Below are positions 8,270-37,474 of a stretch of 64,000 nt of DNA, piece by piece. The stretch's first letter is position 1. Every line of letters begins with the position of its first letter. Position numbers and translations under genes: made by a program. The DNA is from an uncultured cyanobacterium (GTDB taxonomy: Bacteria; Cyanobacteriota; Cyanobacteriia; PCC-9006; JAAUQQ01), in contig OY970368.1 of the NCBI GenBank assembly GCA_963718615.1, positions 4,064,001-4,128,000 on the forward strand. The letters run 5' to 3'. Below the pieces are notes generated by a model. The model was not told the DNA's origin. It worked only from the letters and a program-made list of their open reading frames with translations, and did not search any database.

Positions 8270-8273
8270 TTTC

Positions 8274-9853: not shown

Positions 9854-9873
9854 CGACCCACTAGGAGACTATC

Positions 9874-11442: not shown

Positions 11443-11451
11443 TTCATAGAC

Positions 11452-11478: not shown

Positions 11479-11500
11479 CTCGTAATCACAGGAATAGGTT

Positions 11501-11788: not shown

Positions 11789-11807
11789 TTCTCTCCCTGA
11801 GGTTCCT

Positions 11808-12098: not shown

Positions 12099-12149
12099 CT
12101 TATCTCGCCAACGCTTGATGTAACGCATTCCCACTCACCTGCGATCGCC

Positions 12150-14885
12150 ATGAAAATGACCCCTGGCACAATGAATGAATTATTGACCCAGCCTGGTTGT
12201 GAACACAATCACAAGAAAAACGGCAAGGGACATCATAAAGCTTGTCAGCAGCAGGCTAAGCCCGGAGCTGCTCAAGGGGGCTGTGCTTTTGATGGAGCTA
12301 GTATTGCGCTGGTGCCGATTACCGATGTAGCGCATCTAGTACATGGTCCGATCGCCTGTTCAGGCAATTCTTGGGGTGGACGAGGGAGCCTGTCTTCGGG
12401 ACCTATGCTCTACAAAATGGGCTTTACAACCGATCTGAGCGAAAACGACATTATTTTTGGTGGGGAAAAGAAGCTCTTTCAGGCCATTCAAGATATTCAA
12501 GCCCGCTACCAACCTGCCGCAGTTTTTGTCTATTCTACCTGTGTCACAGCCTTGATCGGAGATGATCTGAATGCAGTCTGTAAGGCAGCAGCGGAGAAGC
12601 TTGAGATTCCAGTTGTTCCCATTCATTCTCCGGGTTTTGTCGGGAGTAAAAATCTAGGCAATCGCCTAGCGGGAGAGGCGTTGCTAGAGCATGTCATTGG
12701 AACAACTGAGCCCGAATATACAACTCCATACGATATCAATCTGATTGGAGAGTACAACATTGCAGGTGAACTATGGGGCGTTTTGCCCTTGTTTGAAAAA
12801 CTTGGTATTCGGGTTTTAGCCAAAATTACAGGAGATGCCCGCTATCAGGAAGTGGCCTATGCCCATCGAGCTAAACTCAATGTGATGATCTGCTCAAAGG
12901 CGCTGATCAATTTGGCCCATAAGATGCAGGAGCGCTATGGTGTTCCTTACATTGAAGAATCCTTCTACGGTGTAGAAGATCTCAATCGTTGTTTACGAAA
13001 CATTGCTGCAAAGCTCGGAGATGAAGACTTAAAGGCACGGGTAGAAACCTTGATCGCCGAGGAAACGGCTAAGCTTGAACAGGCTATTGCACCCTATCGC
13101 GATCGCCTTCAGAACAAGCGGGTAGTTCTCTATACCGGTGGTGTCAAGAGTTGGTCTATCATCTCTGCGGCTCAAGACTTAGGGATTCGAGTCGTTGCTA
13201 CCAGCACTCGCAAGAGCACGGAAGAGGACAAAGCACGCATCAAAACGCTGTTGGGCGAAGACGGCATAATGATGGATAAGGGAGGCGCGACGGAACTGCT
13301 GCGAGTGATTGAGCAAACCCAGGCCGATCTGTTAATTGCTGGAGGACGAAACCAGTACACCGCCCTCAAAGCCCGAATTCCATTCCTCCACATCAACCAA
13401 GAGCGTCACAATCCTTACTCGGGTTATGGCGGTTTGTTGGAGATGGCAAAGGAATTGGACGAAACCTTGCATAGTCCAGTCTGGGGTGAAGTCAGGCAGC
13501 TTGCCCCCTGGGATGCCTCTTCCGGTCTCACAGCACCGCAATCCTCAGTTGCACCCACTACTGTAGTCGCCCGCAGAAAAGCTGTCACCGTCAATCCCCT
13601 CAAACAGAGTCAACCCCTTGGAGCGGCTCTAGCCTTCCTAGGGATCCAGGGTGCAATGCCACTTTTCCATGGTTCGCAAGGCTGCACAGCCTTTGCCAAG
13701 GTGTTGCTGGTTGGACATTTTCAGGAATCAATCCCACTGGCAACCACCGCCATGGGAGAAGTCAGCACAGTCCTGGGAGGGGATGAGAATGTCGAAATTG
13801 GCATCATGACGATTATTGAGAAAAACCAACCGGAACTGGTTGGACTCTTCACGACAGCCTTAACAGAAACCCGAGGCGATGACATGAAGGGAATTTTGCG
13901 CGAGTTCCATCAAGCGCATCCTGAAGTGAATTTGCCAGTTGTTTTTGCATCTACACCGGACTACAAAGGAAGTTTACAGGATGGATTTGCGGCTGCGGTG
14001 GAAAGCTTGGTGCAAACCCTGCCAGAAGCCGGGGACGTCAATCCTCGACAGGTCACGCTACTCGCCAGTTCTGCCTTAGGTCCAGCGGATGTGGAGGAGC
14101 TCAAGGAAATCGTGGAATCCTTTGGCCTAAGCCCCATTGCGGTCCCCGACCTTTCTACCTCCCTAGATGGTCATCTAGACGATGCAGACCACTATACAAC
14201 TCCGACGGGCGGCACGACGGTAGAGCAACTGCGGGCCGTAGGTCGCTCGGCCCTGACGCTGAGTTTGGGAGGGAGTATGGCAGGGGCCGCTGAAATTTTA
14301 ACCCAGCGATTTGGGACGCCTGTGGCTCAGCTTGACCAGGTGACGGGATTAGGAGCCGTTGATCGCTTCCTCCAGACCCTAGCTCAACTTAGTGGTCAAC
14401 CGGTCCCGGCCAAATATCAGCGTCAGCGACGGCAGTTGCAAGATGCCATGCTCGATACCCACTTTTATTTCGGTCGAAAACGGATTGCGATCGCCCTCGA
14501 ACCCGATTTACTCTACAACATTGCCTGGTGGATCCACAGCACTGGCGCTGAAATTCAGGCTGCCGTAACCCCAATCCAGTCTCCCTTACTCAAAACCCTG
14601 CCGCTGGAAAAAGCCTATATCGGTGATTTTGAGGATTTTGAAAACCTTGCCGCCGGAGCCGATTTATTGATTACCAACTCTAAGGCCCGACCTCTTGCCC
14701 ACCGCTTGAATATTCCCCTCTACCTCCATGGATTTCCCATGCTAGAGCAACTGGGTAATGGCCAACGGTGCACTGTAGGGTATCGCGGCACGATGAAGCT
14801 CCTGTTTGACATTGGCAACTTGTTACTAGAGGCCGATGAAGCACGAGTTCATCAGTTGGTTCACCACTGGCGGGATGGACAATGA
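12150..14885 (+). CDS. nifEN: Fused NifE-NifN FeMo-co scaffold
   Basis: NifE half (GGCAFDGA, HGPIAC), Ser/Ala/Pro linker, NifN half (NPLKQSQPLGA, HGSQGC) in one 911-aa frame. Confidence 0.96.
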   Translation: MKMTPGTMNELLTQPGCEHNHKKNGKGHHKACQQQAKPGAAQGGCAFDGASIALVPITDVAHLVHGPIACSGNSWGGRGSLSSGPMLYKMGFTTDLSENDIIFGGEKKLFQAIQDIQARYQPAAVFVYSTCVTALIGDDLNAVCKAAAEKLEIPVVPIHSPGFVGSKNLGNRLAGEALLEHVIGTTEPEYTTPYDINLIGEYNIAGELWGVLPLFEKLGIRVLAKITGDARYQEVAYAHRAKLNVMICSKALINLAHKMQERYGVPYIEESFYGVEDLNRCLRNIAAKLGDEDLKARVETLIAEETAKLEQAIAPYRDRLQNKRVVLYTGGVKSWSIISAAQDLGIRVVATSTRKSTEEDKARIKTLLGEDGIMMDKGGATELLRVIEQTQADLLIAGGRNQYTALKARIPFLHINQERHNPYSGYGGLLEMAKELDETLHSPVWGEVRQLAPWDASSGLTAPQSSVAPTTVVARRKAVTVNPLKQSQPLGAALAFLGIQGAMPLFHGSQGCTAFAKVLLVGHFQESIPLATTAMGEVSTVLGGDENVEIGIMTIIEKNQPELVGLFTTALTETRGDDMKGILREFHQAHPEVNLPVVFASTPDYKGSLQDGFAAAVESLVQTLPEAGDVNPRQVTLLASSALGPADVEELKEIVESFGLSPIAVPDLSTSLDGHLDDADHYTTPTGGTTVEQLRAVGRSALTLSLGGSMAGAAEILTQRFGTPVAQLDQVTGLGAVDRFLQTLAQLSGQPVPAKYQRQRRQLQDAMLDTHFYFGRKRIAIALEPDLLYNIAWWIHSTGAEIQAAVTPIQSPLLKTLPLEKAYIGDFEDFENLAAGADLLITNSKARPLAHRLNIPLYLHGFPMLEQLGNGQRCTVGYRGTMKLLFDIGNLLLEADEARVHQLVHHWRDGQ

Positions 14886-14968
14886 AACCATTTGTCAAGG
14901 ATTGAAATAAGCCCCTCAAATGACCCAATTGACCCACCTACTGTTTATTGAATCCAAAGGAGATTCCC

Positions 14969-15394
14969 ATGAAAATAGCCTTTGCCACGAATGATGCTGT
15001 TCATATTAATGCTCACTTTGGCTGGGCCAGTCGCATTGATGTCTATGACGTTGATACTGAAAGGTACACCTTTTTAGAAACTTTAGCGTTTCAGGGCGAC
15101 CTCAAAGAAGACGGCAATGAAGACAAACTAGAACCGAAACTACAAGCTTTAGCCGACTGCACCATTGTCTACGTTTCCGCGATCGGAGGCAGTGCTGCCG
15201 CCCGTCTGATTCGGAAAAATATTACCCCTATCAAGGCCCAATCCGAAGCAGACGAAATTGAGGATGTGCTCACTCGACTGGTACAAACCCTCAACGGCAG
15301 TCCCCCTCCTTGGCTACGCAAGGCCCTGCTCAAAAGCCAACCCCACACCTTTGAAACTGAGTTTGAAACCATCGAAGAGGAAATTTTAGTATGA
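14969..15394 (+). CDS. nifX: NifX
   Basis: MKIAFAT, NAHFG, IGGSAAA, PPPWLRK; AAGGAG RBS before ATG 14969. Confidence 0.95.
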   Translation: MKIAFATNDAVHINAHFGWASRIDVYDVDTERYTFLETLAFQGDLKEDGNEDKLEPKLQALADCTIVYVSAIGGSAAARLIRKNITPIKAQSEADEIEDVLTRLVQTLNGSPPPWLRKALLKSQPHTFETEFETIEEEILV

Positions 15395-15903
15395 GTCCTG
15401 TTAAAACCCCCACCCCATCCGCTACCACTCTCAATACTCCCAATGAAGCCTTGGCCGCTACCTTAGTAGTTGATAGCTCCCTCTTTCTCAAGGCATTAGT
15501 CCAGCAAATTCGTGCGAATGATGCCTATGGTACTTATCGGAATTGGGCTGACCATTTGCTACTCAAGCCCTATATCCTATCCAAGAAAGAGCGCCGGGAT
15601 ATTTCTGTCGAAGGCGATGTCGATCCCATTACGTTAGGACGAATTTTAGGGTTTTATCGGGCGATCGCCGCTCGCATTGAAGAAGAAACCGGTCAACTTT
15701 CCCAGGTCGTCATTGATTTAAGTCATGAAGGTTTTGGCTGGGCCTTGATCTTCTCCGGTCGTTTAATTCTAGTCTCTAAGACACTGCGCGATGCTCAACG
15801 CTTTGGTTTTGATTCCCTAGAGAAACTTCATGCCGAAGGTGAAAAGCTTGTACAAAAAGGCGTTGAGCTGGGTAATAAATTTCCGGAGGTTTGTAATCTT
15901 TAA
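15391..15903 (+). CDS. NifX-associated protein (DUF269-like)
   Basis: DLSHEGFGWAL, LRDAQRFGFDSLEKL; overlaps the nifX stop. Confidence 0.88.
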   Translation: MSPVKTPTPSATTLNTPNEALAATLVVDSSLFLKALVQQIRANDAYGTYRNWADHLLLKPYILSKKERRDISVEGDVDPITLGRILGFYRAIAARIEEETGQLSQVVIDLSHEGFGWALIFSGRLILVSKTLRDAQRFGFDSLEKLHAEGEKLVQKGVELGNKFPEVCNL

Positions 15904-15924
15904 TCTATAACCAATCTCCTGCTT

Positions 15925-16176
15925 ATGTCTCAGACGACTCCCTCGATATCCGCCGATCTGCCCATGAGTAATCCCTCCAATCTTGATGAACTCAGACAGC
16001 AAATTAAACGACTCAACAGCAAAGCAGGTCAAATGAAGATGGACTTGCATGATATTGCAGAAGGATTACCCAACGATCTAGACCAATTACCTGACATAGC
16101 CGCTCGTACCTTTGAGATTTTTTGTCAACTTCGCAATCTCAAACAACAGCTTAAAACTTTAGAGGAACAGCCATGA
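15925..16176 (+). CDS. CCE_0567/DUF683-like nif protein
   Basis: [20 protein letters not shown] motif; position before nifW. Confidence 0.85.
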
Positions 16177-16496
16177 TGACTACAACCCGATCCCTCGCCA
16201 AATTCAACCAGCTTCGTAATGCCGAAGATTATTTTGAGTTTTTCGAGCTAGATTACGATCCCCAAGTGGTCAATATTAATCGTTTGCACATTCTTCGCAA
16301 GTTTTCCCAGCTTGTGCAAACGATGGATACCCAAGGGCTTGAGACCGACGAGCAAAAGCTGACCATCTATCGTAACGCCTTACAAATGGCTTACGACTTA
16401 TTTCTAACCTCTAACTCGGTGCAGCAAAAACTCTTTAAAGTCTTCCAAGACAAGCCCAAGAACGTCGTTATGCTGTCGGAAATTGGCCTGGAGTAG
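16173..16496 (+). CDS. nifW: NifW
   Basis: [34 protein letters not shown]. Confidence 0.95.
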
Positions 16497-16500
16497 TCCC

Positions 16501-17286
16501 ATGATCAACTCACTCACGCCTACAGAAATTGAACGCTACCGTCGGCAAATGATGTTGCCCGATATCGGCGAATCCGGCCAGATTCGGCTAAAAAACACAA
16601 CGGCTTTAGTAACAGGCGTGGGTGGCCTCGGCGGGACAGCTGCATTATATTTGGCAGTTGCCGGAGTGGGTAAACTCATTCTTGTTCGAGGTGGGAATTT
16701 ACAACGAGATGATCTAAATCGGCAGATTCTGATGACCGATGACTGGGTTGGAAAACCTCGGGTCTTCAAAGCCCAGGAAACCCTAACCCAACTTAACCCG
16801 GATATCAAAATTGAGGCGGTTTGTGAGTATGTAAGCAGAGAAAACATCGATGCCTTGGTCCAACAATCCGATATTGCCTTGGATTGCGCTTTCGATTTTC
16901 AAGAGCGGGATTTGCTCAACGCCGCCTGTATCCGCTGGGAAAAACCCATGGTTGAAGCAGCCATGAATGCGATGGAGGCTTATCTCACCACCATCGTACC
17001 CGGTCAAACCCCCTGCCTTACCTGTCTTTTTCCTGAAAAGCCGGAGTGGGATCGCTGGGGCTTTGGCGTCCTAGGCGCAGTCTCGGGAACCTTGGCCTGT
17101 CTAGCCGCACTGGAAGCCATCAAGCTCGTGACCGGTTTAGGAAAACCCTTGCTTGGACAACTTCTAACCTTAGATCTCGCACAGGCCAAATTTGCCAAGC
17201 ATCGGACTTACCATGATTTGGATTGTCCGGTCTGTGGGACGTTAAGTCGCCAGAAACGGTCTGATCCATTACCTATCCCTCTTTAG
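16501..17286 (+). CDS. hesA: HesA (ThiF/MoeB family)
   Basis: RYRRQ, GVGGLG, DLNRQ, CLTC and CPVC; after nifW. Confidence 0.92.
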   Translation: MINSLTPTEIERYRRQMMLPDIGESGQIRLKNTTALVTGVGGLGGTAALYLAVAGVGKLILVRGGNLQRDDLNRQILMTDDWVGKPRVFKAQETLTQLNPDIKIEAVCEYVSRENIDALVQQSDIALDCAFDFQERDLLNAACIRWEKPMVEAAMNAMEAYLTTIVPGQTPCLTCLFPEKPEWDRWGFGVLGAVSGTLACLAALEAIKLVTGLGKPLLGQLLTLDLAQAKFAKHRTYHDLDCPVCGTLSRQKRSDPLPIPL

Positions 17287-17307
17287 CATTGAATTCTATG
17301 GTGACCT

Positions 17308-17613
17308 ATGACCTGGATTGCATTAGCACTCTTTGGCGTGGCGCTTGTTCTCTGGCGACACAGTCAATTTCAAAAAGACGAAATCGTTCGTTTTTTACAA
17401 CTTTCAATCGCCTTAGTTTGTTTGATGAGTGGTCTCGTGATGGCCCACTGGCTACTCAACCTGAGTATCCTGATTAGCCTCCTCATTTATCCCACCTGCT
17501 CTCCCTACAAGGATCGGATTTTCAACTCCAATTGTTCTCAGCTTTGTCTGCGAAAAAATCAGTGTAAATCTGAATCTATCCGTCCAACTCTAACCCCTAG
17601 AAAATTGTCATGA
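17308..17613 (+). CDS. Hypothetical membrane protein with Cys-rich C-terminus
   Basis: Fills the hesA-hesB gap; 2-3 hydrophobic helices; ATGA overlap with hesB. Confidence 0.65.
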   Translation: MTWIALALFGVALVLWRHSQFQKDEIVRFLQLSIALVCLMSGLVMAHWLLNLSILISLLIYPTCSPYKDRIFNSNCSQLCLRKNQCKSESIRPTLTPRKLS

Positions 17614-17975
17614 GTGTTACATTAACCGAACTTGCTGAACTACACCTACGAACCTTTGTGCGTGCTGTTCCTAATGGTACTCCTGAGCGAGGCATTCGTC
17701 TTGCCGTTAAAGATGGAGGCTGCAATGGATACGAATACGATATCAAAATTGCAGATGCCCCCCAGGCCGAAGATGAAATCACCCAAGTGGGAAGTCTCAG
17801 AGTTTTTGTAGATCCCAATAGTGCTCCATTATTAGACGGTATCATCGTGGACTACGTCGATAGCTTGCTTGAAAGTGGCTTCAAATTTACCAATCCTAAT
17901 GCTACTGACACCTGCGGCTGCGGCAAATCGTTCCAAACCGCAGATTGTAGTACTCCCGGTGTTCCCTGTTCTTAA
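17610..17975 (+). CDS. hesB: HesB/IscA A-type Fe-S carrier
   Basis: GGCNGYEY, FTNPNA...CGCGKSF. Confidence 0.93.
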   Translation: MSVTLTELAELHLRTFVRAVPNGTPERGIRLAVKDGGCNGYEYDIKIADAPQAEDEITQVGSLRVFVDPNSAPLLDGIIVDYVDSLLESGFKFTNPNATDTCGCGKSFQTADCSTPGVPCS

Positions 17976-18006
17976 GGTGTTCCCTATTCTTAGCTCAATT
18001 GCTCAA

Positions 18007-18046
18007 CTCCACTACCCTATCACCCCATTACCCTATCACCCCATTA
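18007..18046 (+). repeat. Octamer tandem repeat (CCCYATYA-type) x5
   Basis: CTCCACTA CCCTATCA CCCCATTA CCCTATCA CCCCATTA. Confidence 0.8.
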
Positions 18047-18059
18047 CCTCTTTCTTACC

Positions 18060-23160: not shown

Positions 23161-23326
23161 GTTGGGTTGAGGCACGAAACCCAACATGCACAAGTCAACC
23201 TGCACAAGCTCTGTTGGGTTTCGCTAGGGCTCAAGTCAACCTGCACAAGCTCTGTTGGGTTTCGCTAGGGCTCAAGTCAACCTGCACAAGCTCTGTTGGG
23301 TTTCGCTAGGGCTCAACCCAACCTAC
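23157..23326. repeat. GTAG-type REP doublet with an internal 41-bp tandem triplication
   Basis: Left arm GTAGGTTGGGTTGAGGCACGAAACCCAACA, right arm TGTTGGGTTTCGCTAGGGCTCAACCCAACCTAC; identical 41-mers at 23191, 23232 and 23273. Confidence 0.85.
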
Positions 23327-25334
23327 GAATTTGCTGGGCTTCGATTTGACTCGCGAATAAGCTTTGCAAACGCATCAGTTGCCCCCCGCCTAGATAGAGT
23401 AAATCACCTTTACCCAAGAGCTGTGCTGCGGCTTCTTCTTTACCCCCTAGGATGATCGAAGAGTCGGCGGAGCTAGCGGTTCGCAGGGCTACACGTCCGG
23501 GCAGGTTGGAACGAATCAGGGGGGTGACGACTTTGGCTTCGGGGCGTTGGGTGGCGATGATCAGGTGAATGCCTGCGGCGCGGGCCATGGCTCCAAGTCG
23601 TTTGATGCTTTGTTCTAGGGCTGTTGCAACGGATTTCTCAGCCATGAAGTCTGCGTATTCGTCAAAAATGCAGACAATTCTTGGGAGCGGTTCCGCTTTG
23701 GCATTGTAACCTTTAAGGTCTGAGCATTGGGCTTGTTCAAAGCGACGATAGCGACGTTCCATTTCATCGACCAGGCTTTCCATTAGCTCGATCGCGGCTT
23801 CGGAATCTTTGACGATGGGTTGATAGAGCCAGGGAATGGTTTCAAATTCTGGGAAGGTGACGCGCTTGGGATCGACGAGGACAATTTTGAGGTGATTGGG
23901 ACTGTGGCGGGTGAGGAGGCTGAGGAGGAGCGATCGCAAAAACTCGCTTTTACCGCTTCCAGTTGTACCTCCGACTAAAAAGTGACAGGTGTTGGGATCG
24001 GATAGGTCGGCTTCAACAAGATGGCCATCCAGGTTAACACCGATCGCAATCTTAACCGGCTCGGTGGGCGGGGTGTTTTGGCGCTGAATGTAGTCTTGAA
24101 AATGGGCGGTTTGGCGATCGGGTCGGGGCAAGTCTACGCTAAGATAACCGGCTTGAGGGGCAATCATCGGCGCGTTGTGAAGTCCCATCTGAACCCGTAA
24201 ATCGTCAGAAAGTTTGAGGATCGAGGCGATTTTAATGCCGGGATGAGGTTTAAGTTTGACTCGAATAAACGCAGGGCCGATGGCAGAGCCCGCGTAGTCT
24301 ACGCCGATGTTGAAGGCGCTGAGGACTTGGATCAGTTGGTTAGCGGTTTCATCAGCAACATTGTTGTTGGGGGGCGGTGGGATGGTGGGGTGATGGGGTA
24401 GTGGGGTGATGGGGTGGTGGGGTGAATTGGTGGGTTGGGGAATTGGGTCTGGAGCGAGGTCGGCGGCGGTGGCTCCGAACATTTCTCGGCATTTACTGCG
24501 TTTGGGACAGATGCCGCAGAGGGAGGGTTGGGCGGTGGCTGGGACGGGGTTGGGCTGGCCGGGTTGCCATTGCAGCCAGGTTTGCATTTGCTGGAGCCGT
24601 TGGGGGATGAGCTGATGAACGGTGGATTCTAGTTGATCCCATTGGAAACTTTGTTCTTTCCAGTCGGGCAGAACGCTGTAAACGGCGGAGTTGATCGGGA
24701 CGCCGACTTTTTGCCGCAGCATGTAGCCATATAGGGCAACTTGGGCGAGGGTGGCGGAGGCGTCTTGGGTTTGGTAGGTTTTGTAGTCGGCGACGCAGAG
24801 GCGTTGTTGGGAGAAGTCGTAAATCAGGCTATCAAACTTGCCTTGGACGAGCTGTTGTGTGCCGTTGGGCAGGGTGAAGGTATGGGCGAGTTTGAGTTCT
24901 TTGGCGAGGAAGGTGCGGGAGGCAACGTCGGTGGCGTTGCAAAATTGGCGGTTGCTGGCGAGGAGTTTACCCCAATGCTGAATCAGTCCGGTGAGCCCTT
25001 GCCAAAGTTTTTGATAAGCCGCAACTTTCTTGGGGTCTGACTGCGCAACTTGCAAGAGTTCTGGGTAGAAGGCATGTTTATACAGCAGTTTCTCTAGTTC
25101 TTGGGCGGTGGTCTGAGCGTCAAGGTTTGGGGGGTTGAATAGTGCCTGAAATTCAGGGTTTTTGAGGATTAGTTCGACGGATGTTTCACAGAGCTTGTGG
25201 AAGGCTTGGCCAATGCCTGTGACTGTGTCTTTGGGTTGAAACATCGTGGGGCCAGGAAATTTCTCTCCGAGGTAGAAGAGGCGGGGGCACTCGAAGGCGA
25301 CGCGGATTTTGGTGACGCTGAGGGAGGAAGTCAT
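23313..25334 (-). CDS. PD-(D/E)XK (Cas4/AddB-like, 4-Cys) nuclease fused to FtsK/SpoIIIE translocase
   Basis: N-terminal ECPR, GKFD, ADYKT, QVALY, CGICPKRSKC; Pro-rich linker; GGTTGSGKS, VDPK, IFDE, ATQRP, LLGKGDLL; no membrane or gamma domain. Confidence 0.88.
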   Translation of the reverse strand: MTSSLSVTKIRVAFECPRLFYLGEKFPGPTMFQPKDTVTGIGQAFHKLCETSVELILKNPEFQALFNPPNLDAQTTAQELEKLLYKHAFYPELLQVAQSDPKKVAAYQKLWQGLTGLIQHWGKLLASNRQFCNATDVASRTFLAKELKLAHTFTLPNGTQQLVQGKFDSLIYDFSQQRLCVADYKTYQTQDASATLAQVALYGYMLRQKVGVPINSAVYSVLPDWKEQSFQWDQLESTVHQLIPQRLQQMQTWLQWQPGQPNPVPATAQPSLCGICPKRSKCREMFGATAADLAPDPIPQPTNSPHHPITPLPHHPTIPPPPNNNVADETANQLIQVLSAFNIGVDYAGSAIGPAFIRVKLKPHPGIKIASILKLSDDLRVQMGLHNAPMIAPQAGYLSVDLPRPDRQTAHFQDYIQRQNTPPTEPVKIAIGVNLDGHLVEADLSDPNTCHFLVGGTTGSGKSEFLRSLLLSLLTRHSPNHLKIVLVDPKRVTFPEFETIPWLYQPIVKDSEAAIELMESLVDEMERRYRRFEQAQCSDLKGYNAKAEPLPRIVCIFDEYADFMAEKSVATALEQSIKRLGAMARAAGIHLIIATQRPEAKVVTPLIRSNLPGRVALRTASSADSSIILGGKEEAAAQLLGKGDLLYLGGGQLMRLQSLFASQIEAQQIRRLG
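24383..24422 (-). repeat. Octamer tandem repeat inside the nuclease-FtsK linker
   Basis: TGGTGGGG TGATGGGG TAGTGGGG TGATGGGG TGGTGGGG; same family as the repeat at 18007. Confidence 0.75.
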
Positions 25335-27370
25335 GAGGGGACGAGGCAGATGACCTGCTGTTCTGGTTTTACGCTGGGATCTACGATCCGTATCCTACCT
25401 GTCTGACACATCTTTACAAGAATTGATTCAAGATCTGAGTCACTTACATGACTAAATTGGTCCTTTGCATTTTTCAGAAAGACTGTACGACCTAAAATAT
25501 GCTGAGTTTCGATCAGGCTATACAAATAGCCTTCGACCTTTTTTAGACCTGGACCTGGAACTGGAACTGGACCTGGACCTATACCTCTCACAGCTTCAAA
25601 TAATTCTTTCAAGATTGGACAATCATCAAGTACTTTAGTTTCTCTAACAAGAGCACGTAACTCTTTGAGACTGATCTCTTTTTGACCGACTACTAATTCT
25701 CGGCTACCAGAATCATTGACGAGCTTCTGATAGGTTTCAAGAAAGTAGAGAGAATCGAGATTAGGTTTAAGATGAGTATTTTTATCGAATAGTTGTTGAT
25801 AGAGCTGATGTCCTCGATTTCTCGCGCCCCCTGTACTCTCTGACCGTACTAAAATAAGCTTATCAAAAGCACCTCGGTTGTTCACACTTCTACAAGCATT
25901 CATCACGTGAAAGAACGTTTGCATATTTCTTTCTTCACTCCATACAACACCAATACTTTTATCGGAGTCCTTGAAACTTAATGAATTAGCCGAGTATCTA
26001 GAGTTTCCTAGAATCGAGGTTTTAATCTGGTCTGTTGAAAGTGCTTCTAGGGCTTCGCGCAGTCTCTGAATGAGTTCAGGTGAAGAAAACTGCTGTATGC
26101 GCGAGACTCGTTGCCTGGAGGCTTTGAATTCTTTTTGCCAAACCAGTATGAACTGGGTAGATAATAAGGGTGTTGGTCCTGTTTCTGTTTCTGTTCCTGG
26201 TACTACAGGTGGTAATTTTCCGTGACGCTTGAAGTGATTAACTAGCGTTTCGCCAATCATCAGTGCAATGCGCGGTAAGGTTTTACCACCCGGAACTTTT
26301 GCATCTAGCCACTCTCGTTTTAGGGGATCGATCGGGCTTTTCGGGCGTGGATTGGCCAAGCGATGTAGTGGGTAGAGATTTGCAGCCCAAATTTCCTCGG
26401 CTTGATCTGTTGAAATTTTTCTAAGTTCTAGTGTCTGACCAATACTCGCCAAATCAGACGTTTGGATTTTCTCTTTGGCGACACGCCAAGCATCAGTAAT
26501 TACACTAATAATTATTAGAAAGTTCTTTACTCTTGAATTATGAAAAGTCGAATTAATATCGAGTACAGCTTGATAGTTACCTTTGGTGGTATCGATCTGA
26601 TCAAAGCAAATTACGATAGGCTGTGTTTCTCTTGCAATTAGACCGATATTGTTTAGAATTTTTTGCGCCGCATCCTCCGAGTCAATAGATCCTCTTATTT
26701 TAAGCTTTTTCAGATCATCTTCATCTAAATCGTCACCCCGTAACCAGTCACAAGCGACGTCAAATGTTTCAGATTGTGTCAAGGCGTAGAGCGCTCGAAA
26801 GAAATCCTTGGCGCGATAGAGGCCAACAGGGTAGGCAGCTTTCATGATGTTAACAAATTTGTCACATCCTTCTTGTAGCCAATTCGATTTCTTTTGATTT
26901 TGCAGTTTGAGAAGACTGCGAAGCCAAAGCGAGATCTGTGATTCACTCTCTCCTTCTGGAACTTGCATCAGGCTATCAACTGTATTTCGGAGAGTGTGCC
27001 TCCAGATGTAACTTTGTGGCTCAGGACAAGGACCAACATATACGAAGAAAGCCCGATCGTTGAGTTCTCGCTTAATTCGGCCTAATAGATAGCTTTTGCC
27101 AGATCCACTTTCGCCTTGTATTAGGATGGTTCGGGTGACATGATCATGCGCCATCTGAGCGACAGCGGATTCTACCCTTTCAATCACATCTTGATGAATT
27201 GACTTGACTTCTAATGCGTCTTGATAATCATCTTGCCAGAAGTTTCCAGCCTTAATACTTGGATTAAAGGGATTTACACTAAGTTGAACGATCTTCTCAA
27301 TGGGTTGTTTGGAGGTAGATTCTTTTGATGGAGCCATGGTGATGCCAGAATCGATAACAAATGAGTTCAA
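25331..27370 (-). CDS. Large P-loop ATPase (RcaG-like / BrxD-like)
   Basis: Walker A GESGSGKS, DWLRGD, Walker B VICFDQID; ATGA overlap with the nuclease-FtsK gene; ATG 27337 is an alternative start. Confidence 0.8.
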   Translation of the reverse strand: MNSFVIDSGITMAPSKESTSKQPIEKIVQLSVNPFNPSIKAGNFWQDDYQDALEVKSIHQDVIERVESAVAQMAHDHVTRTILIQGESGSGKSYLLGRIKRELNDRAFFVYVGPCPEPQSYIWRHTLRNTVDSLMQVPEGESESQISLWLRSLLKLQNQKKSNWLQEGCDKFVNIMKAAYPVGLYRAKDFFRALYALTQSETFDVACDWLRGDDLDEDDLKKLKIRGSIDSEDAAQKILNNIGLIARETQPIVICFDQIDTTKGNYQAVLDINSTFHNSRVKNFLIIISVITDAWRVAKEKIQTSDLASIGQTLELRKISTDQAEEIWAANLYPLHRLANPRPKSPIDPLKREWLDAKVPGGKTLPRIALMIGETLVNHFKRHGKLPPVVPGTETETGPTPLLSTQFILVWQKEFKASRQRVSRIQQFSSPELIQRLREALEALSTDQIKTSILGNSRYSANSLSFKDSDKSIGVVWSEERNMQTFFHVMNACRSVNNRGAFDKLILVRSESTGGARNRGHQLYQQLFDKNTHLKPNLDSLYFLETYQKLVNDSGSRELVVGQKEISLKELRALVRETKVLDDCPILKELFEAVRGIGPGPVPVPGPGLKKVEGYLYSLIETQHILGRTVFLKNAKDQFSHVSDSDLESILVKMCQTGRIRIVDPSVKPEQQVICLVPS

Positions 27371-27412
27371 GACCTGAACGGTAGCGAGTTTAAAATTGAT
27401 TTTGAGGAAACA

Positions 27413-28240
27413 TTAAGGATTTAGGCGAATGAAAAACAGAGGGCCGCCAATATCCTGAGGAATACCTGCTCTAATTTGAGCTTCACTATAACGACTGATC
27501 TCATGAAGAGCCGTTAGCTCGATTTTGTCGTCTCTTTGAAGTTGATAGAGAATGCGATCTAACTCGTCACGATCAAGAGCGACTTGATCACGAAGATAGA
27601 AAAGGGGCAAGTAATTATCCGTGTTGTACTGACGATCGAGCTTTGCAATTAGCTCCAATACTTCTGACGCATTAGACACCTGAATCTTCTTGAACTCAAA
27701 ATTTTCAGGTTCTACCTCATCGCTATCCGCAGCCTGCCGCAGAAAGTTGACGTAGCTCCCCATGAGGTTCAGGCTAACAGTCGCTCCCCCAGACGGCTTA
27801 AACTCATGCCGCAAAAACTGCTCACCTTGGGGCGTCAGCCAAACCTCTGCGATCTTGATATCCCGATCGCTCACCTTCAAAAAGCCCCGCTCCTCCAACG
27901 AGCGAATCAGCGCTTGGCGGCGATCGCTAGCAACCTTCTTAACCATCCCCGTCGTGACTCGCTGCCCACCCTTAGCCGCCTCCAGCACACTCAACTCATC
28001 AGCGCTGATCGGTAGATTGGCGACATCTAATTTCAGGAGATTTTGGCCTGTTGGGGCGATCGCAAATCCCCTAATCTCTGTACGATAGGCGACAATTCCT
28101 TTGTTGACCAACTCCCTACAAGCCTTATCCCGATCTGCTGCGCTCTTTCCAGGGCTTAGCTTGTCATTCATCGGACCCCGATACCCCGGCAATCCCAGCA
28201 GCTTCAGCAAAAACTTTAGTTCAAGCGTACTTATATCCAT
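27413..28240 (-). CDS. Multi-winged-helix DNA-binding protein, RcaD-like
   Basis: ELKFLLKLLG, LTPQGEQFL, TDNYLPLFYLR, LYQLQRDDKIEL and GGPLFFI resemble cyanobacterial proteins annotated RcaD (from recall); GAGG RBS before ATG 28240. Confidence 0.7.
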   Translation of the reverse strand: MDISTLELKFLLKLLGLPGYRGPMNDKLSPGKSAADRDKACRELVNKGIVAYRTEIRGFAIAPTGQNLLKLDVANLPISADELSVLEAAKGGQRVTTGMVKKVASDRRQALIRSLEERGFLKVSDRDIKIAEVWLTPQGEQFLRHEFKPSGGATVSLNLMGSYVNFLRQAADSDEVEPENFEFKKIQVSNASEVLELIAKLDRQYNTDNYLPLFYLRDQVALDRDELDRILYQLQRDDKIELTALHEISRYSEAQIRAGIPQDIGGPLFFIRLNP

Positions 28241-28465
28241 CTGCTCAATCCCCTCACTCATATGCTCAGTCATCGTTAGAGCCCGCATCACATTGGACCC
28301 AACTTCTCTATTCTGGCAAAATTTACAGAGATCGGGATTGAAAAATCAAAAATTTTGATCAATCACTGTGTTTTTTGCTGCCAAGCCCCCTTCGGAATTT
28401 CCGTAACCGGAATGACTTCAAGCAGCAGCGATTCCCAGCTTTCCGGAAAAGGAAAGGAGCTTTCC

Positions 28466-29606: not shown

Positions 29607-29627
29607 CTCTCAAAATGAGAGTATAAT
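29607..29627 (+). promoter_or_regulatory. Probable HigA operator abutting the -10 box
   Basis: CTCTCA-AAA-TGAGAG inverted repeat immediately followed by TATAAT, about 30 nt upstream of higB. Confidence 0.6.
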
Positions 29628-29655
29628 GAGGGATAGACTCCAGCAGGCATCGTTG

Positions 29656-29955
29656 ATGCACCTCATATCAATCCGTAAGCTCCGTAGTGATGCAGCCCAT
29701 TACCCTGATCTAGGCCAAGTCATTAACGCTTGGTACGCAGTCGTAAAGAAAGCAAACTGGAAGAATCTAGAGGACGTGAGAATAATTTATCGAGATGCTG
29801 AAACCGTCGGAAACTTCACTGTCTTTAATCTAAAGGGAAATCAGTATCGATTAATCGTTGGTATTGATTACCCTAGCCAAACGGTCTACTACAAATATCT
29901 TCTAACTCACGCTGATTACGATAAAAATAGGTGGAAAAATGACCCTTACTTTTAA
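29656..29955 (+). CDS. higB: HigB family toxin
   Basis: MHLISIRKL, VFNLKGNQYRL, LTHADYDK. Confidence 0.9.
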   Translation: MHLISIRKLRSDAAHYPDLGQVINAWYAVVKKANWKNLEDVRIIYRDAETVGNFTVFNLKGNQYRLIVGIDYPSQTVYYKYLLTHADYDKNRWKNDPYF

Positions 29956-30337
29956 TCTGACTGCTTATAGCGATCTTCTACGGGAAATCACACCCAAAAT
30001 CATCGAGACAGAGATGGAGTATGAAAAAACCTTAGCAATCGTCGAGCAACTGACCTTTAAGCGCGATCGCACCCCCGAAGAAACCGCACTGCATAGGCTA
30101 CTGGTCATACTCATAGAAACCTACGAAGCCGAGCAATACCCCATCCCAGAATCCTCCCCCGACGAAATCCTGCGCCACATCATGGAAGCCAGCGGTACTC
30201 GCCAGATTGACCTAGTGGGAATAATCGGCTCTAGCGGCGTCGTCTCAGAAATCGTCAACGGAAAACGAACCATCAGCAAAGCCCAAGCCAAAATCCTCGC
30301 GGATCGGTTCAAAGTTTCATCCAGCTTGTTCATTTAA
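29939..30337 (+). CDS. higA: HigA family antitoxin (HTH)
   Basis: LIETYE, GSSGVVSEIVNGKRTISK; overlaps higB. Confidence 0.9.
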   Translation: MTLTFNLTAYSDLLREITPKIIETEMEYEKTLAIVEQLTFKRDRTPEETALHRLLVILIETYEAEQYPIPESSPDEILRHIMEASGTRQIDLVGIIGSSGVVSEIVNGKRTISKAQAKILADRFKVSSSLFI

Positions 30338-32988: not shown

Positions 32989-33173
32989 GTCTAATAATAC
33001 TTACTCAAGGATGTTATCCGGCGGCTATGCCGGGATAATGCCTTGAAATGGGTTGTTATCATGCAATATTGCCTGGATAAGTGGCTGAGACCAGGGAGTA
33101 TACGGCGTTGGTGCTTGAGAATACCTGGAAGAGGGAGTTATCAGGCATTGTGCATAAGAATAACTTGTTAGGT
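32989..33173. other. Long attC-like recombination element
   Basis: Bounded by GTCTAAT and GTTAGGT; internal arms TCAAGG.TGTTATCC.GGC/GCCGGGATAATGCCTTGA and TGCCTGGATAA/TTATCAGGCA. Confidence 0.5.
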
Positions 33174-33217
33174 AGCTTAAATTTTTAGTGATGTCATTTT
33201 CATAGGCTCGTGTATTT

Positions 33218-34375
33218 ATGTCATGGGATTCTCCTGTCTTTAGTGTCTGTGTATCAGGTGGTTCTTGGATATGGGCTGCGTGGAACAGTACTAAGGATGC
33301 TTATGCCTTTCTGGAGAAACCTGAAAAAAATTTATCGCTTGATTGCTTGTTCTACGCTGAAGCACCCTCTAAAGAAACTGCAATCAAAACAGCCCGTAAG
33401 ATGTTGGGTACTCACATTAAACAAATAGGTAATGAGTGGGCAGAAGAAGTTTGCAAGGTAATCAATAAAAAGCCTCAAGTCACTTCTGAGGTAATTGGAA
33501 AGAAACCTTATCTTGATGCTGATGACCGTGACGTAATCACTGATGAACTTCAGAAATCTTTAGGCCAACTTCATTTGCTGACTGGATTGAGTGCCGTTAA
33601 ATCTACCGTTCAGGAGTTGGTCAATATTACAAAAGTAGCTCAGATGCAGGTTAAGGCAGGCATTAAAGCTCCTTCAATCACCAGGCATCTTGTATTCACA
33701 GGTAATCCTGGAACAGGTAAAACTACAGTGGCTAGGATTCTTGGCGAAATTTATAAAAATCTTGGTGTTTTATCAAAAGGACATTTTATTGAAGTAGACC
33801 GAAGCAATTTAGTTGCAGAATACTTAGGACAAACAGCACCCAAAACAGTAAAAGTGGTTGAAGCTGCGTTAGGAGGTGTACTTTTTATTGATGAGGCTTA
33901 CTCGCTGGTGCCAGATGGTCGCGGAGATGTATTTGGACAAGAGGCGGTCAATACACTCTTGAAAATGATGGAAGATCACAGAGAAGATTTAGTGATAGTG
34001 GTTGCAGGATACAAGGGGGAGATGTCTCGATTCATTGACTCTAATCCTGGTCTAAAGTCCAGATTTTCAAGATCAGTTCATTTTGAAGACTATTCTCCTT
34101 CCGAGTTAGCCGAGATTTTCAAAGTCAGATGTGAACAGCATGGCTATCTATTCTCAGATAAGACGCTAGAATCTGTGCGTCATTTAGTCAATCAATTTGA
34201 ACATCAAGTTGGAGAGCTTGGAAATGGTAGATTTGTGAGAAACATTTTTGATCGCTGTGTTGCTATTCAGTGTAACCGTTTAGCAGCATTAGCCAAGCCA
34301 ACAAGAGAAGACTTGAAAACCTTCCTTCCTACTGATATTCCTACTTATGAGCAACTAGCTCAGTCTCTTCTTTGA
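33218..34375 (+). CDS. AAA+ ATPase of the CbbX/SpoVK/EccA clade with unknown N-terminal domain
   Basis: HLVFTGNPGTGKT, LFIDEAY, NPGLKSRF, GNGRFVRN. Confidence 0.88.
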   Translation: MSWDSPVFSVCVSGGSWIWAAWNSTKDAYAFLEKPEKNLSLDCLFYAEAPSKETAIKTARKMLGTHIKQIGNEWAEEVCKVINKKPQVTSEVIGKKPYLDADDRDVITDELQKSLGQLHLLTGLSAVKSTVQELVNITKVAQMQVKAGIKAPSITRHLVFTGNPGTGKTTVARILGEIYKNLGVLSKGHFIEVDRSNLVAEYLGQTAPKTVKVVEAALGGVLFIDEAYSLVPDGRGDVFGQEAVNTLLKMMEDHREDLVIVVAGYKGEMSRFIDSNPGLKSRFSRSVHFEDYSPSELAEIFKVRCEQHGYLFSDKTLESVRHLVNQFEHQVGELGNGRFVRNIFDRCVAIQCNRLAALAKPTREDLKTFLPTDIPTYEQLAQSLL

Positions 34376-34397
34376 AATTATCAGTGTGTATAGCGCT

Positions 34398-34484
34398 ACC
34401 TAAACCAGGGCTTGTAGCGGATGGCCTTAACACTCTGGCAATCCTCGAAGACCCTTGTCACCGCTAAAGCCTCAGTCGTTAGAT
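34398..34484 (+). other. attC site (87 bp)
   Basis: ACCTAAAC...GTTAGAT. GGCTT(G)TAGCGG(A)TGGC pairs with GTCACCGCTAAAGCC, leaving two extrahelical bases. Confidence 0.72.
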
Positions 34485-34665
34485 GCACTGAGCTCTTGAA
34501 GTGGACAGGTTACAAGATTGCATCAATAGTAAGCACCTGGTTATGGCATTCTATTAGAAGCACTTGCATCGTAGAATAGAAATCACTCACAAGCTTTCCT
34601 CCAATCCCTATCAAAAGTGTATAATTAAAGCTAATACTCCTACTGGCCAAGTGGGCAGTCATTCA

Positions 34666-35748
34666 ATGCATCCCAAAAACCCACTTTTTCAAAAATGTAT
34701 TTCTTATCTTGAACAACTACCTAGTATTAAGGCAGTTGTTCAAGGAGAACCCTATTTTTCTAGTGAAGTTTTAGCTGATGGTAAACTGGTAATTAATGCT
34801 TCAAACAAGAGCATTAACTATGTCTGTGAGATCAAAACTGGGCTTACAAATGATGTAGTAGAACAAGTAACTAAATATTTTTCCAGTTTAGGAAAAAGAC
34901 TACAGAACGATGAAAGGCCCTTACTAGTTACACGGGGTTTATCTAATCTGGTTATAGAGCAACTCTTAAAAAGAAATATAGAGTTTATAGATGTTGATGG
35001 CAATATTTATCTTAATGGCCCAGAGCTTTATGTACTGGTTCGCAAGCAAGTTTCTAAGGAAAGTGCAAGTAAATCTTTAGAAATTACTGCTGCTTCACTA
35101 CAAGTCATACATACCTTACTCAGTCAACCAAATTTTTTGGGCAGGGGGTATGATTTTGACGAAGAGGTTGCTTCTATTTCCGGTGTCACTCCGAAAACTG
35201 TGAAGAATACTCTTAAAAAACTTCAAGATTTAGATTATATCACGTACAGGCATGGAAAGTATGAAATCGTTGATTATGTCAAACTTCTTGAGCGCTGGGA
35301 GTTAGGATATTCTGAGAGATTACGTGCAAAATTAATTCTTGGAACTTTCACTCCCATCGGAAAGATTAGTTTTTCAGAAGTTGCAAATAAAATCAAAGAA
35401 GGTGCAAGGAATTACGGTTATCTAATAGGTGGCGAGCTTGCCGCTTCAATAATGACTGATTATCTTCGACCTATTAGTGCAACTTTACATCTCAGTAATG
35501 ATTTTGATAGTCGTGAATTAGCAGTCAATTTGAAGCTAAAGCCTGATCCTGATGGTGTTATCACATTTCTTCAAACTTTTGGCAAGTTTAACTATCACCA
35601 AAATGAAATTGGGGAATTTCAACAGACTCTAATTAATCCATTGTTTATTCATGCAGAACTAGTGCGAACTGGAAACAGCCGATTAAAAGAAACAGCCGAA
35701 CTTATCTACGATAGATATATTGAGGAATTGGCACAAAGGCATGATTAG
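34666..35748 (+). CDS. AbiEi-like (type IV TA) antitoxin/regulator
   Basis: IEFIDVDGNIYL, HTH SGVTPKTVKNTLKKL, GGELAA, YLRP, PLFIHAELVRTGNSRLKETA. Confidence 0.78.
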   Translation: MHPKNPLFQKCISYLEQLPSIKAVVQGEPYFSSEVLADGKLVINASNKSINYVCEIKTGLTNDVVEQVTKYFSSLGKRLQNDERPLLVTRGLSNLVIEQLLKRNIEFIDVDGNIYLNGPELYVLVRKQVSKESASKSLEITAASLQVIHTLLSQPNFLGRGYDFDEEVASISGVTPKTVKNTLKKLQDLDYITYRHGKYEIVDYVKLLERWELGYSERLRAKLILGTFTPIGKISFSEVANKIKEGARNYGYLIGGELAASIMTDYLRPISATLHLSNDFDSRELAVNLKLKPDPDGVITFLQTFGKFNYHQNEIGEFQQTLINPLFIHAELVRTGNSRLKETAELIYDRYIEELAQRHD

Positions 35749-36520
35749 CTCTAATGAAAAGCAAGTTTTAGCTGATCTAATCTATATTGTTAGCTCATTA
35801 GACTTGCCAATGATGTTAGTTGGCGCAGGAGCTAGGCTTTTGATATTTGACCAGAGGTTTGGAGAAGGAAGAGGAACAAAAGACTGGGACGTGGCAATTT
35901 CCATAAATGATTGGGGAGCCTATCAAAAACTCTGTGAATTCCTAACAACTGGTGATTCGCCACGATTTAAATCAACAAAGAATTCCCACAAATTTATACA
36001 TATTAAAACTAAAATCGAGGTCGACATAGTTCCGTTTGGTGAAATTGGCGAGCCAGATCAGAAAATTGTCTGGTCTGACAGTGGTAATTCGATGAATGTT
36101 TCAGGCTTTACGGAAGCTCTCTTACATGCAAAAACTACTGTTATTGATGATTTGGAAATCCCAGTGGTTGACACGCCAGCTTTTGTTGTTCTTAAAATCT
36201 TTGCATGGGGAGATCGTGGAGAACGTACAAACAAAGATTTAGAAGATATTGAATTTATTTTATTGAGGTATGAAGATGATGAGCGTGTGTATTCTGAACT
36301 AGCAGGAGAACTTGCTGATGGAATCGTTGAATTTCTCGATGCTAATATTTACTTGCTTGGTCAAGATATTTACAAAATACTTCAAGACAAAACTCTGATC
36401 GAACTTGATTTACTATTGAATAAATTGATTGAAAGTTTAAGAACTGACAATTCTGAATCGTTGGGCTACAAGTTAAAAGTCTTTCAGGCAGGGATTCGCT
36501 CTTTATATCCGCAAGCGTGA
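35741..36520 (+). CDS. AbiEii-like nucleotidyltransferase
   Basis: VGAGAR, RGTKDWDV, VDIVPFG, LKIFAWGDR, KDLEDI; overlaps the antitoxin stop. Confidence 0.8.
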   Translation: MISSNEKQVLADLIYIVSSLDLPMMLVGAGARLLIFDQRFGEGRGTKDWDVAISINDWGAYQKLCEFLTTGDSPRFKSTKNSHKFIHIKTKIEVDIVPFGEIGEPDQKIVWSDSGNSMNVSGFTEALLHAKTTVIDDLEIPVVDTPAFVVLKIFAWGDRGERTNKDLEDIEFILLRYEDDERVYSELAGELADGIVEFLDANIYLLGQDIYKILQDKTLIELDLLLNKLIESLRTDNSESLGYKLKVFQAGIRSLYPQA

Positions 36521-36606
36521 TCTAAAATGCCCATGCATCCGATCGCCCAAAAGCTACCTGTACAGATCTTGAGGTTATCTGCGGCGGGTGATGGGTAACG
36601 TTATTT
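36520..36606 (+). other. attC site (87 bp)
   Basis: ATCTAAA...GTTATTT. CCCAT(G)CATCCG(A)TCGC pairs with GCGGCGGGTGATGGG, with the same G/A bulges as the 34398 site. Confidence 0.72.
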
Positions 36607-36621
36607 ACTTTTTCTAGAATC

Positions 36622-36987: not shown

Positions 36988-37073
36988 GGGTATCATAACA
37001 AGATGGATCGGGATGGTCGGCCTTGTGTAGTAATGAAGCCAATCAGGATTGTCCTTTCGGGATGAGTAATGAC

Positions 37074-37373: not shown

Positions 37374-37474
37374 GTGACCTCGCTGAAGTCCAACAATATG
37401 ACTGCAATTCCTTATACTACGAGAATCGTAATAACTCCGGACTTTAAAAATAAAATTTATTCGGGAAGTCTAAA

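Follow-up and report, generated by a model that had tools for sequence, protein, structure and literature searches.

We describe a three-gene operon of an uncultured cyanobacterium that occupies 23313-28291 on the minus strand of a window of 64,000 nucleotides (nt) (contig OY970368.1, positions 4,064,001 to 4,128,000, of assembly GCA_963718615.1; all coordinates below are window positions). Gene A encodes a tandem winged-helix protein of the RcaD family, gene B an ORC/Cdc6-like AAA+ ATPase, and gene C a fusion of a Cas4/AddB-type nuclease to an FtsK motor. Because their linkage is conserved and they show joint decay and natural fusions, the view that the three proteins form one machine is well supported, and on this sequence evidence we hold it with good confidence. 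As a whole, the operon is best explained as a loader-dependent translocating nuclease acting on foreign or broken DNA, an explanation that we offer tentatively, at a little short of an even chance.

The composition of protein C was established from family searches. PDDEXK_1 matched residues 4-283 (E 2.3e-14) and FtsK_SpoIIIE (PF01580) residues 424-598 (E 1.6e-42) in Pfam, and the solved structure of E. coli FtsK, 2ius, matched residues 305-553 (E 1.9e-53), bona fide FtsK being the closest relative of the alpha and beta domains. No gamma-domain family was among the Pfam matches of C at E<=0.1, and C stops about 10 residues past the motor. The highest mean over 19 residues on the Kyte-Doolittle scale was 1.24 in A, B, and C, and since no stretch exceeds this value, none of the three appears to be membrane-bound. 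Pfam, the alignment of homologues, and hydropathy therefore bear out the earlier note, which had described a PD-(D/E)XK domain with a 1+3 cysteine pattern joined to an FtsK motor that lacks the membrane and gamma domains.

Conservation of C was judged on an alignment of 32 homologues, whose identity is 49-64% across host families. The cysteines C16, C273, C276, and C282 (an N-terminal cysteine and CxxCxxxxxC) are invariant, as are the Walker A (residues 456-463, GGTTGSGKS), DEYAD (558-562), and TQRP (595-598) motifs of the motor; D168, E/D183, K185, Q195, Q198, and Y202 of the nuclease are conserved in at least 90% of the sequences, and the catalytic motif of the window protein reads D183-Y-K185. 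Because these motifs are kept, both the nuclease and the motor look active, and both appear to be under purifying selection. The same four cysteines are retained in stand-alone nuclease paralogues. C weakly matches Cas4 and DruK models, and its score against TIGR00372, the equivalog model for CRISPR-associated Cas4, is 18.2 bits, below the cutoff of 65.

Most cyanobacterial C proteins are 850-900 amino acids (aa) long and begin with a DnaQ-like 3'-5' exonuclease domain (PF01612), which the window protein, a short form, does not have. The exonuclease is placed between the nuclease and the motor at one locus (L031), a protein kinase is inserted in C at another (L027), and a YbjN-like domain precedes C at a third (L032). 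A stand-alone 219-aa 3'-5' exonuclease of the window genome was considered as the missing domain and rejected; its identity to the exonuclease domains carried by C homologues is only 30-39%. Within the linker, heptamer-like CCCCAT(C/T)A repeats encode residues ~302-325 (nt ~24360-24430) and extend slightly into the first FtsK-alpha codons. Similar repeats (ACCCTATCACCCCATT units) recur in intergenic DNA at 17990-18050, before a ferredoxin gene, which suggests in-frame expansion of STRR-like repeat DNA inside gene C.

Protein A matched no Pfam, NCBIfam, or PADLOC family. Its AlphaFold model (pLDDT 92.3, from a 46-sequence alignment) shows tandem winged helices: a MarR-like part spans residues 1-153 (Z 8.9, 74 residues aligned, root-mean-square deviation [rmsd] 2.7), and residues 189-275 form a winged helix resembling those of Scc1-C (kleisin), ScpA, ORC, and MCM (Z ~7.5-8.1). 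Since these Z values are middling, they point to a shared fold only and to no specific family.

Protein B gave only weak Pfam matches to AAA_16 (E 1.1e-9) and a NACHT P-loop, with BrxC_BrxD at E 0.016. Its model (pLDDT 87.1, pTM 0.88) comprises an AAA+ core (~56-400), a middle domain of alpha/beta type (~440-560), and a winged helix at the C terminus (~598-679), of which residues 598-678 resemble cullin WHB (Z 11.4). The fold matches (Foldseek/VIA) include Drosophila Cdc6 (7jgr_G; Z 13.6, 250 residues aligned, rmsd 3.3), Sulfolobus Cdc6/Orc1 (2qby_B; Z 13.0), TnsC (Z 12.0), and BrxC (Z 11.6), and Avs and RdrA are also among the fold relatives. As modeled, B is an AAA+ protein of the ORC/Cdc6 type (base and lid, then winged helix), which is a loader or switch type. 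Residues G86, G91, and K92 of Walker A are invariant in 47 B sequences. In Walker B, the residue after D257 is Q or N in 45 of the 47 and E in 2, a departure from the canonical D-E. Mutants with E changed to Q in Walker B are an established analogy for the ATP-bound state, and by this analogy the D-(Q/N) motif suggests that B may be a slow, ATP-gated or ATP-bound switch and not a fast motor.

The B sequences fall into two deep classes that do not track A and C and are ~49% identical within one family (f7), with the divergence spread along the whole protein. Two loci from the same genus (L015 and L010) are 79% identical in A and 88% in C, compared with 49% in B, and two loci from different genera (L008 and L015) are 78% identical in A, 91% in B, and 83% in C. 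Both classes are present in one genome (G026; L018, 6013-13844) in the order B-A-B-C, and they derive either from the sorting of old paralogues or from allelic replacement. Two B-type ATPases per locus were seen in some genomes, as B-A-B-C (L018) or as A-B-B (L040, L042).

To follow the genes through the phylum, 301 evenly drawn genomes were searched with each of A, B, and C, and matches were found to C in 45 (33 of 132 genera), to B in 47, and to A in 42. Full-length C is present in 33 of the 301, the window genome included; the remaining C matches include unrelated FtsK-like or SspH-like proteins. In 31 of these 33 genomes, which belong to 10 families, A-B are found immediately 5' of C and share its orientation, with one gene intervening between the parts in 2 of the 31. 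We fetched and gene-mapped 40 loci. Where all three genes are present (28 loci), B and C overlap or are no more than 35 nt apart in 23 cases by longest-open reading frame (ORF) calls. All three genes carry stop codons in one genome (G295), a case of joint decay. The linkage that had been proposed from the window thus extends to other genomes, and the claim of one conserved functional unit is upheld by it and by the B-C fusions described below. The distribution is patchy and includes pseudogenes, in agreement with the earlier expectation that these are not uniformly conserved core genes.

Other genomes show that the parts can be separated, which weighs against an obligate three-part machine. 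C lies 148 kb (G143) and 949 kb (G068) from A-B in two genomes, and A-B occur without C in five (G139, G175, G299, G159, and G179), in one of which (G299) only a 186-aa exonuclease ORF follows A-B. Second loci of the form A-B-B, without C, are found in G008, G089, and G014; no alternative effector was found 3' of these loci, where an insertion sequence remnant, a CHAT fragment, and chemotaxis genes are located. C remnants without A or B remain in G056, G041, and G032, and the third gene of G255 encodes the nuclease only, with D168, E183, and K185 lost and the cysteines kept.

The nuclease domain (C residues 1-300) was also searched against 1.84 billion representative proteins, with 121 matches at E<=1e-3 and 59 at E<=1e-10. 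Pfam scans covered 58 of the 121, namely 53 longer, more distant proteins and 5 short ones. FtsK is present in 31 of the 53 long proteins and a HerA/DUF87/TrwB-type ATPase in 19, while 3 have no recognized ATPase; a nuclease domain of the C type appears rarely to stand without a motor. Three long relatives start with AAA_16. P0460 (1348 aa; Carboxydochorda/Limnochorda, Bacillota) consists of B-like, PDDEXK_1, FtsK_alpha, and FtsK parts, and the B profile aligned with its residues 18-610 at an hhalign probability of 99.8% (E 7e-28, 554 columns). P0453 (1581 aa), the cluster of which has a member from Roseimaritima multifibrata (Planctomycetota), consists of B-like (hhalign probability 98.5% with the B profile), PDDEXK_1, and HerA parts. 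P0406 (1436 aa) has an N-terminal AAA_16 and a C-terminal HerA/TrwB-type domain in Pfam, its nuclease being matched by the query search only and not by Pfam. Further relatives come from Myxococcota and Lokiarchaeia, the latter being a HerA-type fusion.

A Planctomyces metagenome-assembled genome (L051, 3630-8653) has a set of genes with overlapping ends that encodes a 372-aa protein, a B-like protein (28% identity), and a PDDEXK-FtsK fusion (30%) without the cysteine cluster. The 372-aa protein, 5' of the B-C pair, was tried as a counterpart of A and rejected (hhalign probability 0.2%). A contig scan with the C alignment yielded ordinary FtsK of other phyla at 75 of 80 loci, its query being made of generic motor motifs; the same scan gave five cyanobacterial loci and this one Planctomyces locus of use. 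The natural B-C fusions argue independently for joint action of B and C, and they also show a B-C core extending beyond cyanobacteria. A may be cyanobacterial only, or too divergent to be recognized elsewhere.

We propose that A, B, and C would form one ATP-driven DNA-processing machine, in which A and B would recognize a DNA substrate, B in its ATP state would recruit, load, or license the C ring on that DNA, and C would reel the DNA in and degrade it from a cut or an end. A similar scheme had been suggested before, with the winged-helix protein reading DNA, the ATPase licensing, and the motor-nuclease cutting; the folds and the motifs of C fit it, and the division of labor itself we infer. 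The machine would serve to restrict invading or mobile DNA, as an immune module that is fixed on the chromosome, passed on vertically, and often lost. This is the least certain step, and we consider a role in defense possible but somewhat doubtful.

Defense is favored by the patchy presence of the system (the 33 of 132 genera given above), its repeated decay, the swapped B classes, and the shuffling of domains. Further points in its favor are the kinship of the B fold with BrxC, Avs, and RdrA and the presence of FtsK-type motors in the PADLOC models SspH and mad8. PADLOC v2.0.0 (2023 library) contains no system whose components are matched over their full length: A has no match, B has its best match at the P-loop level (E 6e-4), and C is matched in its FtsK part and, weakly, in its Cas4-like part. 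No described system being matched there, the operon can still be called uncharacterized, as it had been. FtsK ATPases have been noted as uncommon effector domains of the conflict systems found in multicellular bacteria and predicted to be inactive there (PMC7159879, in the part drawn on here), unlike C with its intact motor motifs.

Several observations weigh against a defense role, and with them the setting in defense islands that the earlier note had proposed is not upheld. In a tree of the 32 C sequences (a quick search without bootstraps), host families are recovered, all 15 rows of family f7 form one clade (Shimodaira-Hasegawa-like approximate likelihood-ratio test 100), and label changes number 10 compared with a minimum of 9, a value as low as which was reached in 0 of 200 shuffles. 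Because the C tree follows the host families, vertical inheritance is indicated, and the conservation of C across families is unusually high for an immune effector. The order GT4-GT2-A-B-C-ParA-like is repeated across genera. As neighbors, the three ORFs flanking the block to either side were taken in the 40 loci, with one representative per sequence cluster; ORFs <105 aa, two fragments of the decayed operon of L034, the C of L031, which had not joined the C cluster, and, for the PADLOC scan, also a nuclease paralogue were dropped (179 -> 138 -> 137). Of these 137 representatives, only 8 had PADLOC matches at E<=1e-12, namely three kinases, two ABC ATPases, one intein endonuclease, one Uma2, and one WGR/HEAT protein, most of them generic domains; the neighbors are mostly housekeeping genes, and the loci lie outside defense islands. 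No modification or self-protection gene is evident with the operon. Full-length C was found on only 1 of 72,556 plasmid records, pPSE7367.01 of Pseudanabaena PCC 7367, where the triad is annotated as hypothetical protein, P-loop NTPase, and FtsK, and the nuclease domain was found in 0 of 50,697 phage records. Viral contigs also gave no match, but this carries little weight, since the patterns used were near-exact peptides of the window C.

The vertical inheritance and the stable housekeeping context on the chromosome are also what would be expected if the same machine were a housekeeping complex, acting in end resection at double-strand breaks or in DNA clearance, by analogy with HerA-NurA or AddAB/RecBCD, in large-genome, polyploid cyanobacteria without RecBCD. 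Known end-resection machines join a translocase with a nuclease, a logic shared by the combination of a translocase, an Fe-S nuclease of the Cas4/AddB type, and a 3'-5' exonuclease. In the window genome, RecC has no match and RecB none above the cutoff, the only other PDDEXK_1 protein being a 272-aa ORF. RecC was found in 24 of the 301 genomes, and the triad in 0 of these 24. The RecC genomes include all 14 of family f17 (1.6-3.0 Mb), consistent with the marine picocyanobacteria to which recBCD is mainly confined according to the portion of PMC5101192 used here; FtsK is not mentioned in that source. However, most of the sampled cyanobacteria have neither RecBCD nor the triad, and there is no real complementarity, so that the RecC pattern does not discriminate; moreover, the overlap expected by chance is only ~2-3 genomes, and related genomes are not independent. 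Repeated loss and pseudogenes within a genus (presence in 6 of 8 genomes of g17, and remnants only in g12) are unusual for a repair pathway, and two deeply divergent B classes are hard to fit with one. For Synechocystis 6803, S. elongatus 7942, and Anabaena 7120, the only entries in the review table of PMC7766704 are YjgR/HerA-type proteins and a plasmid FtsK; by that table, the chromosomes of these main model strains are without the system. We therefore regard a housekeeping role in resection or clearance as unlikely, if worth keeping in view.

It could also be proposed that C is a soluble chromosome-clearing or segregation motor. SftA is a soluble FtsK-type protein, and the gamma winged-helix domain of FtsK reads KOPS and activates XerD; A would take over the sequence reading of the gamma domain, and the nuclease would resolve or remove DNA trapped at division. 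C is the sole true FtsK-clade motor in the window genome, most sampled cyanobacteria have no such motor at E<=1e-10, its alpha and beta domains are closest to bona fide FtsK, as noted above, and the C-terminal winged helix of A resembles those of kleisin and ORC (Z ~8). A ParA/MinD-like gene lies just 3' of C in most related loci; the 21 members of this cluster of 294-aa ATPases are spread over 19 of the 40 loci, mostly directly after C. However, because the ParA-like gene is intact where the triad has decayed (L034) or is split (L036, L041) and is absent beside the window operon, it looks like synteny only, and it was rejected as a fourth component. Most cyanobacteria do without the system, a segregation motor would not be expected to carry two degradative nuclease domains, and no membrane or divisome-targeting region is evident in C. 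A segregation function is thus improbable. The loci with the ParA-like gene are L007-L018, L029, L030, L034, L036, and L041 (f7 and neighbors), and at L041 a ParB_N/Rho_N protein is encoded beside it. The only other FtsK/HerA-like match in the window genome is a 1021-aa ORF (E 6.5e-9; G000:C1:2889624-2890256, L002), which may be the YjgR/HerA-type protein listed in reviews as cyanobacterial 'FtsK'.

The names attached to A and B come from a different field. In NCBI/UniRef, the label 'transcription factor RcaD' is given to homologues that are 38-45% identical to A (E 1e-51 to 1e-60). According to PMC2799420, citing Noubir 2002, RcaD was purified as a protein binding the cpc2 promoter, and an rcaD mutant showed altered expression of phycobiliprotein operons; the same source describes RcaG as a putative ATPase encoded 3' of rcaD and reports the same gene pairing for Lyngbya 7968/7969, of which 7968 was captured on jamaicamide promoter DNA. 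The resemblance to RcaD pointed out in the earlier note is therefore real at the family level, as A belongs to the family named after RcaD of Calothrix (Tolypothrix) PCC 7601. A is followed by a gene for a large P-loop ATPase, as are the genes described in PMC2799420. The position and P-loop of B fit RcaG, the comparison being with its published description and not its sequence, and the link of A and B to the published pair, judged from homology, is by family and not by the PCC 7601 locus. The literature on RcaD treats the pair as a transcription factor and its helper, and unlike the operon described here, no nuclease-FtsK third gene is mentioned in the part of PMC2799420 that covers it; our literature search found nothing joining RcaD with FtsK in a relevant sense.

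If A and B simply regulated the transcription of phycobiliprotein and other operons, as described for RcaD and RcaG, C would be an unrelated 3' gene. The promoter binding, the mutant effect, and the capture of 7968 would agree with this, as would the A-B pairs without C in several genomes. However, the adjacency of A-B-C in 31 of 33 genomes from 10 families, the B-C fusion proteins in other phyla, and the joint decay of the three genes in one genome all speak against it. The window operon lies by nif and mod genes, with no phycobiliprotein genes near it. DNA-affinity capture demonstrates DNA binding and not regulation, and the published rcaD mutation could, we infer, have been polar on 3' genes. 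A purely regulatory role for A and B is very unlikely.

Compared with known systems, the translocating nuclease that we favor is a variant on familiar themes. Archaeal HerA-NurA, AddAB, and RecBCD likewise pair an ATP-driven translocase with a nuclease, the nuclease of C has the four-cysteine PD-(D/E)XK pattern of AddB/Cas4, and some of its relatives, one from Lokiarchaeia, are fused to HerA-type ATPases. Unlike these systems, the motor of C is of the FtsK clade and not HerA or superfamily 1, the operon has no NurA, Mre11, or Rad50 partner, and A-B-C add an ORC-like AAA+ protein and a tandem winged-helix protein. In PADLOC, the SspH models match the motor of C through their FtsK-like C-terminal part (E 6e-70 and 4e-52), and SspH is a precedent for FtsK-type motors in defense. 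However, the match covers only the last ~350 of the 1766 positions in the SspH model, neither A nor B matches a component of Ssp or Dnd at E<=0.1, and the operon has no sulfur-modification genes, which sets it apart from DndFGH/SspFGH. From the divisome FtsK, to which its alpha and beta domains are highly similar, C differs in having no membrane segments and no KOPS-reading gamma domain and in having a nuclease as its N terminus.

ORC/Cdc6, TnsC/MuB, and BrxC (of BREX) are ATP-gated, DNA-bound platforms that recruit a partner enzyme. B shares with them the AAA+ fold, the lid, and the C-terminal winged helix (Z 11.6-13.6), but has no family membership at the sequence level (AAA_16 E 1e-9; BrxC_BrxD E 0.016), has D-Q/N and not D-E in Walker B, and carries an extra alpha/beta domain of ~120 residues. 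Our literature search for cyanobacterial FtsK with a Cas4/RecB-type nuclease fusion, or as a defense system, found nothing relevant. The nuclease-FtsK fusion may already be in print as a domain architecture; the 2004 account of the FtsK-HerA superfamily by Iyer et al. is said to depict, perhaps, cyanobacterial fusions of this kind.

The features of the operon are collected in Table 1. The description of three co-oriented genes, the last two sharing an ATGA, is confirmed on the minus strand. Gene A is 292 aa long when read from the GTG at 28291; the end given earlier, 28240, is the ATG at codon 18, which is the more likely start and gives 275 aa. Gene B is 679 aa long from a TTG, and its database copy is 668 aa, beginning at an ATG 11 codons in (27337) that is probably the true start. 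The spacing between A and B is 42-75 nt, depending on the start codon of B. Promoter and terminator scans of the operon gave nothing exceeding shuffled expectation.

Table 1. Genes, domains, and junctions of the nuclease-FtsK operon in the window
Feature	Position	Strand	Protein residues	Basis or remark
Gene A, RcaD-family tandem winged-helix DNA-binding protein	27413..28291	-		ORF; homologues named RcaD; AlphaFold model
Gene B, ORC/Cdc6-like AAA+ ATPase, in the RcaG position	25331..27370	-		Pfam AAA_16, NACHT P-loop, fold matches
ATGA overlap, B stop and C start	25331..25334	-		Sequence read; translational coupling
Gene C, nuclease-FtsK fusion	23313..25334	-		673 aa
PD-(D/E)XK nuclease domain, Cas4/AddB-type, 1+3 cysteines	24465..25334	-	C 1-290	PDDEXK_1, conserved motifs
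Proline/histidine-rich linker	24366..24464	-	C 291-323	Variable in length and content among homologues
FtsK alpha domain	24126..24365	-	C 324-403	PF17854, E 1.3e-10
FtsK/SpoIIIE beta (RecA-like motor) domain, no gamma after it	23313..24125	-	C 404-673 and stop	PF01580

On one side of the operon lie modBC (modABC) and a nif cluster, and on the other a DsrE-like gene, higBA, and leuCD. The higB toxin gene (PF09907, E 5e-29) overlaps a 132-aa ORF without a Pfam match, presumably higA, at 29626-30337 between the operon and leuC. The operon had been placed in a variable region with higBA and AbiE-like genes. The higBA genes are indeed near, but the AbiEi-like gene (34564-35748) is 6 kb from the operon, and because it lies beyond the core genes leuC and leuD and the other side is modABC and nif, the term is only partly apt. 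A low-GC (guanine plus cytosine) island at 33000-39100 (37-41% GC) contains a CbbX-like AAA ATPase, an AbiEi_2 protein, three family-less ORFs, and a DDE transposase. The nif cluster at 326-18000 is complete, with nifV-like, nifB, fdxN-like, nifS, nifU, nifH, nifD, nifK, nifZ, nifX, DUF269, nifW, hesA-like, and hesB-like genes, and it includes a 911-aa ORF (12150-14885) with two nitrogenase component-1 domains, apparently a fused nifE-nifN. At 45601-48160 are adjacent genes for Methyltransf_33 (histidine-specific) and FGE-sulfatase plus DinB_2 proteins, which we take to be EgtD and EgtB of ergothioneine synthesis. Near the triad of another genome (L013, 1412-5548), a DnaB helicase gene is interrupted by an intein with a LAGLIDADG endonuclease.

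What is new here is an unnamed variant of the motor-plus-nuclease theme to which an ORC-like loader is added. If our reading is right, RcaD and RcaG would be recast as parts of a DNA translocase-nuclease machine: a gene pair of chromatic adaptation would be reassigned, and the original rcaD mutant would be worth a second look for polar effects. A bolder proposal, which we consider rather unlikely, is that RcaD and RcaG, which for two decades have been cited as controlling complementary chromatic adaptation, would make up one half, for DNA sensing and licensing, of an unnamed and widespread immune system whose conserved core, an ORC-like AAA+ ATPase with a Cas4-type nuclease fused to an FtsK/HerA ring translocase, would reach from Cyanobacteria to Planctomycetota, Bacillota, Myxococcota, and Asgard archaea, with the two B classes as alternative specificities of invader recognition. 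The machine, if it works as proposed, would also be a bacterial case of an ORC-like ATPase acting with a ring translocase, its loader being kin to replication initiators. Filamentous and large-genome cyanobacteria are often hard to transform, and a strain-variable DNA-degrading system could be one cause.

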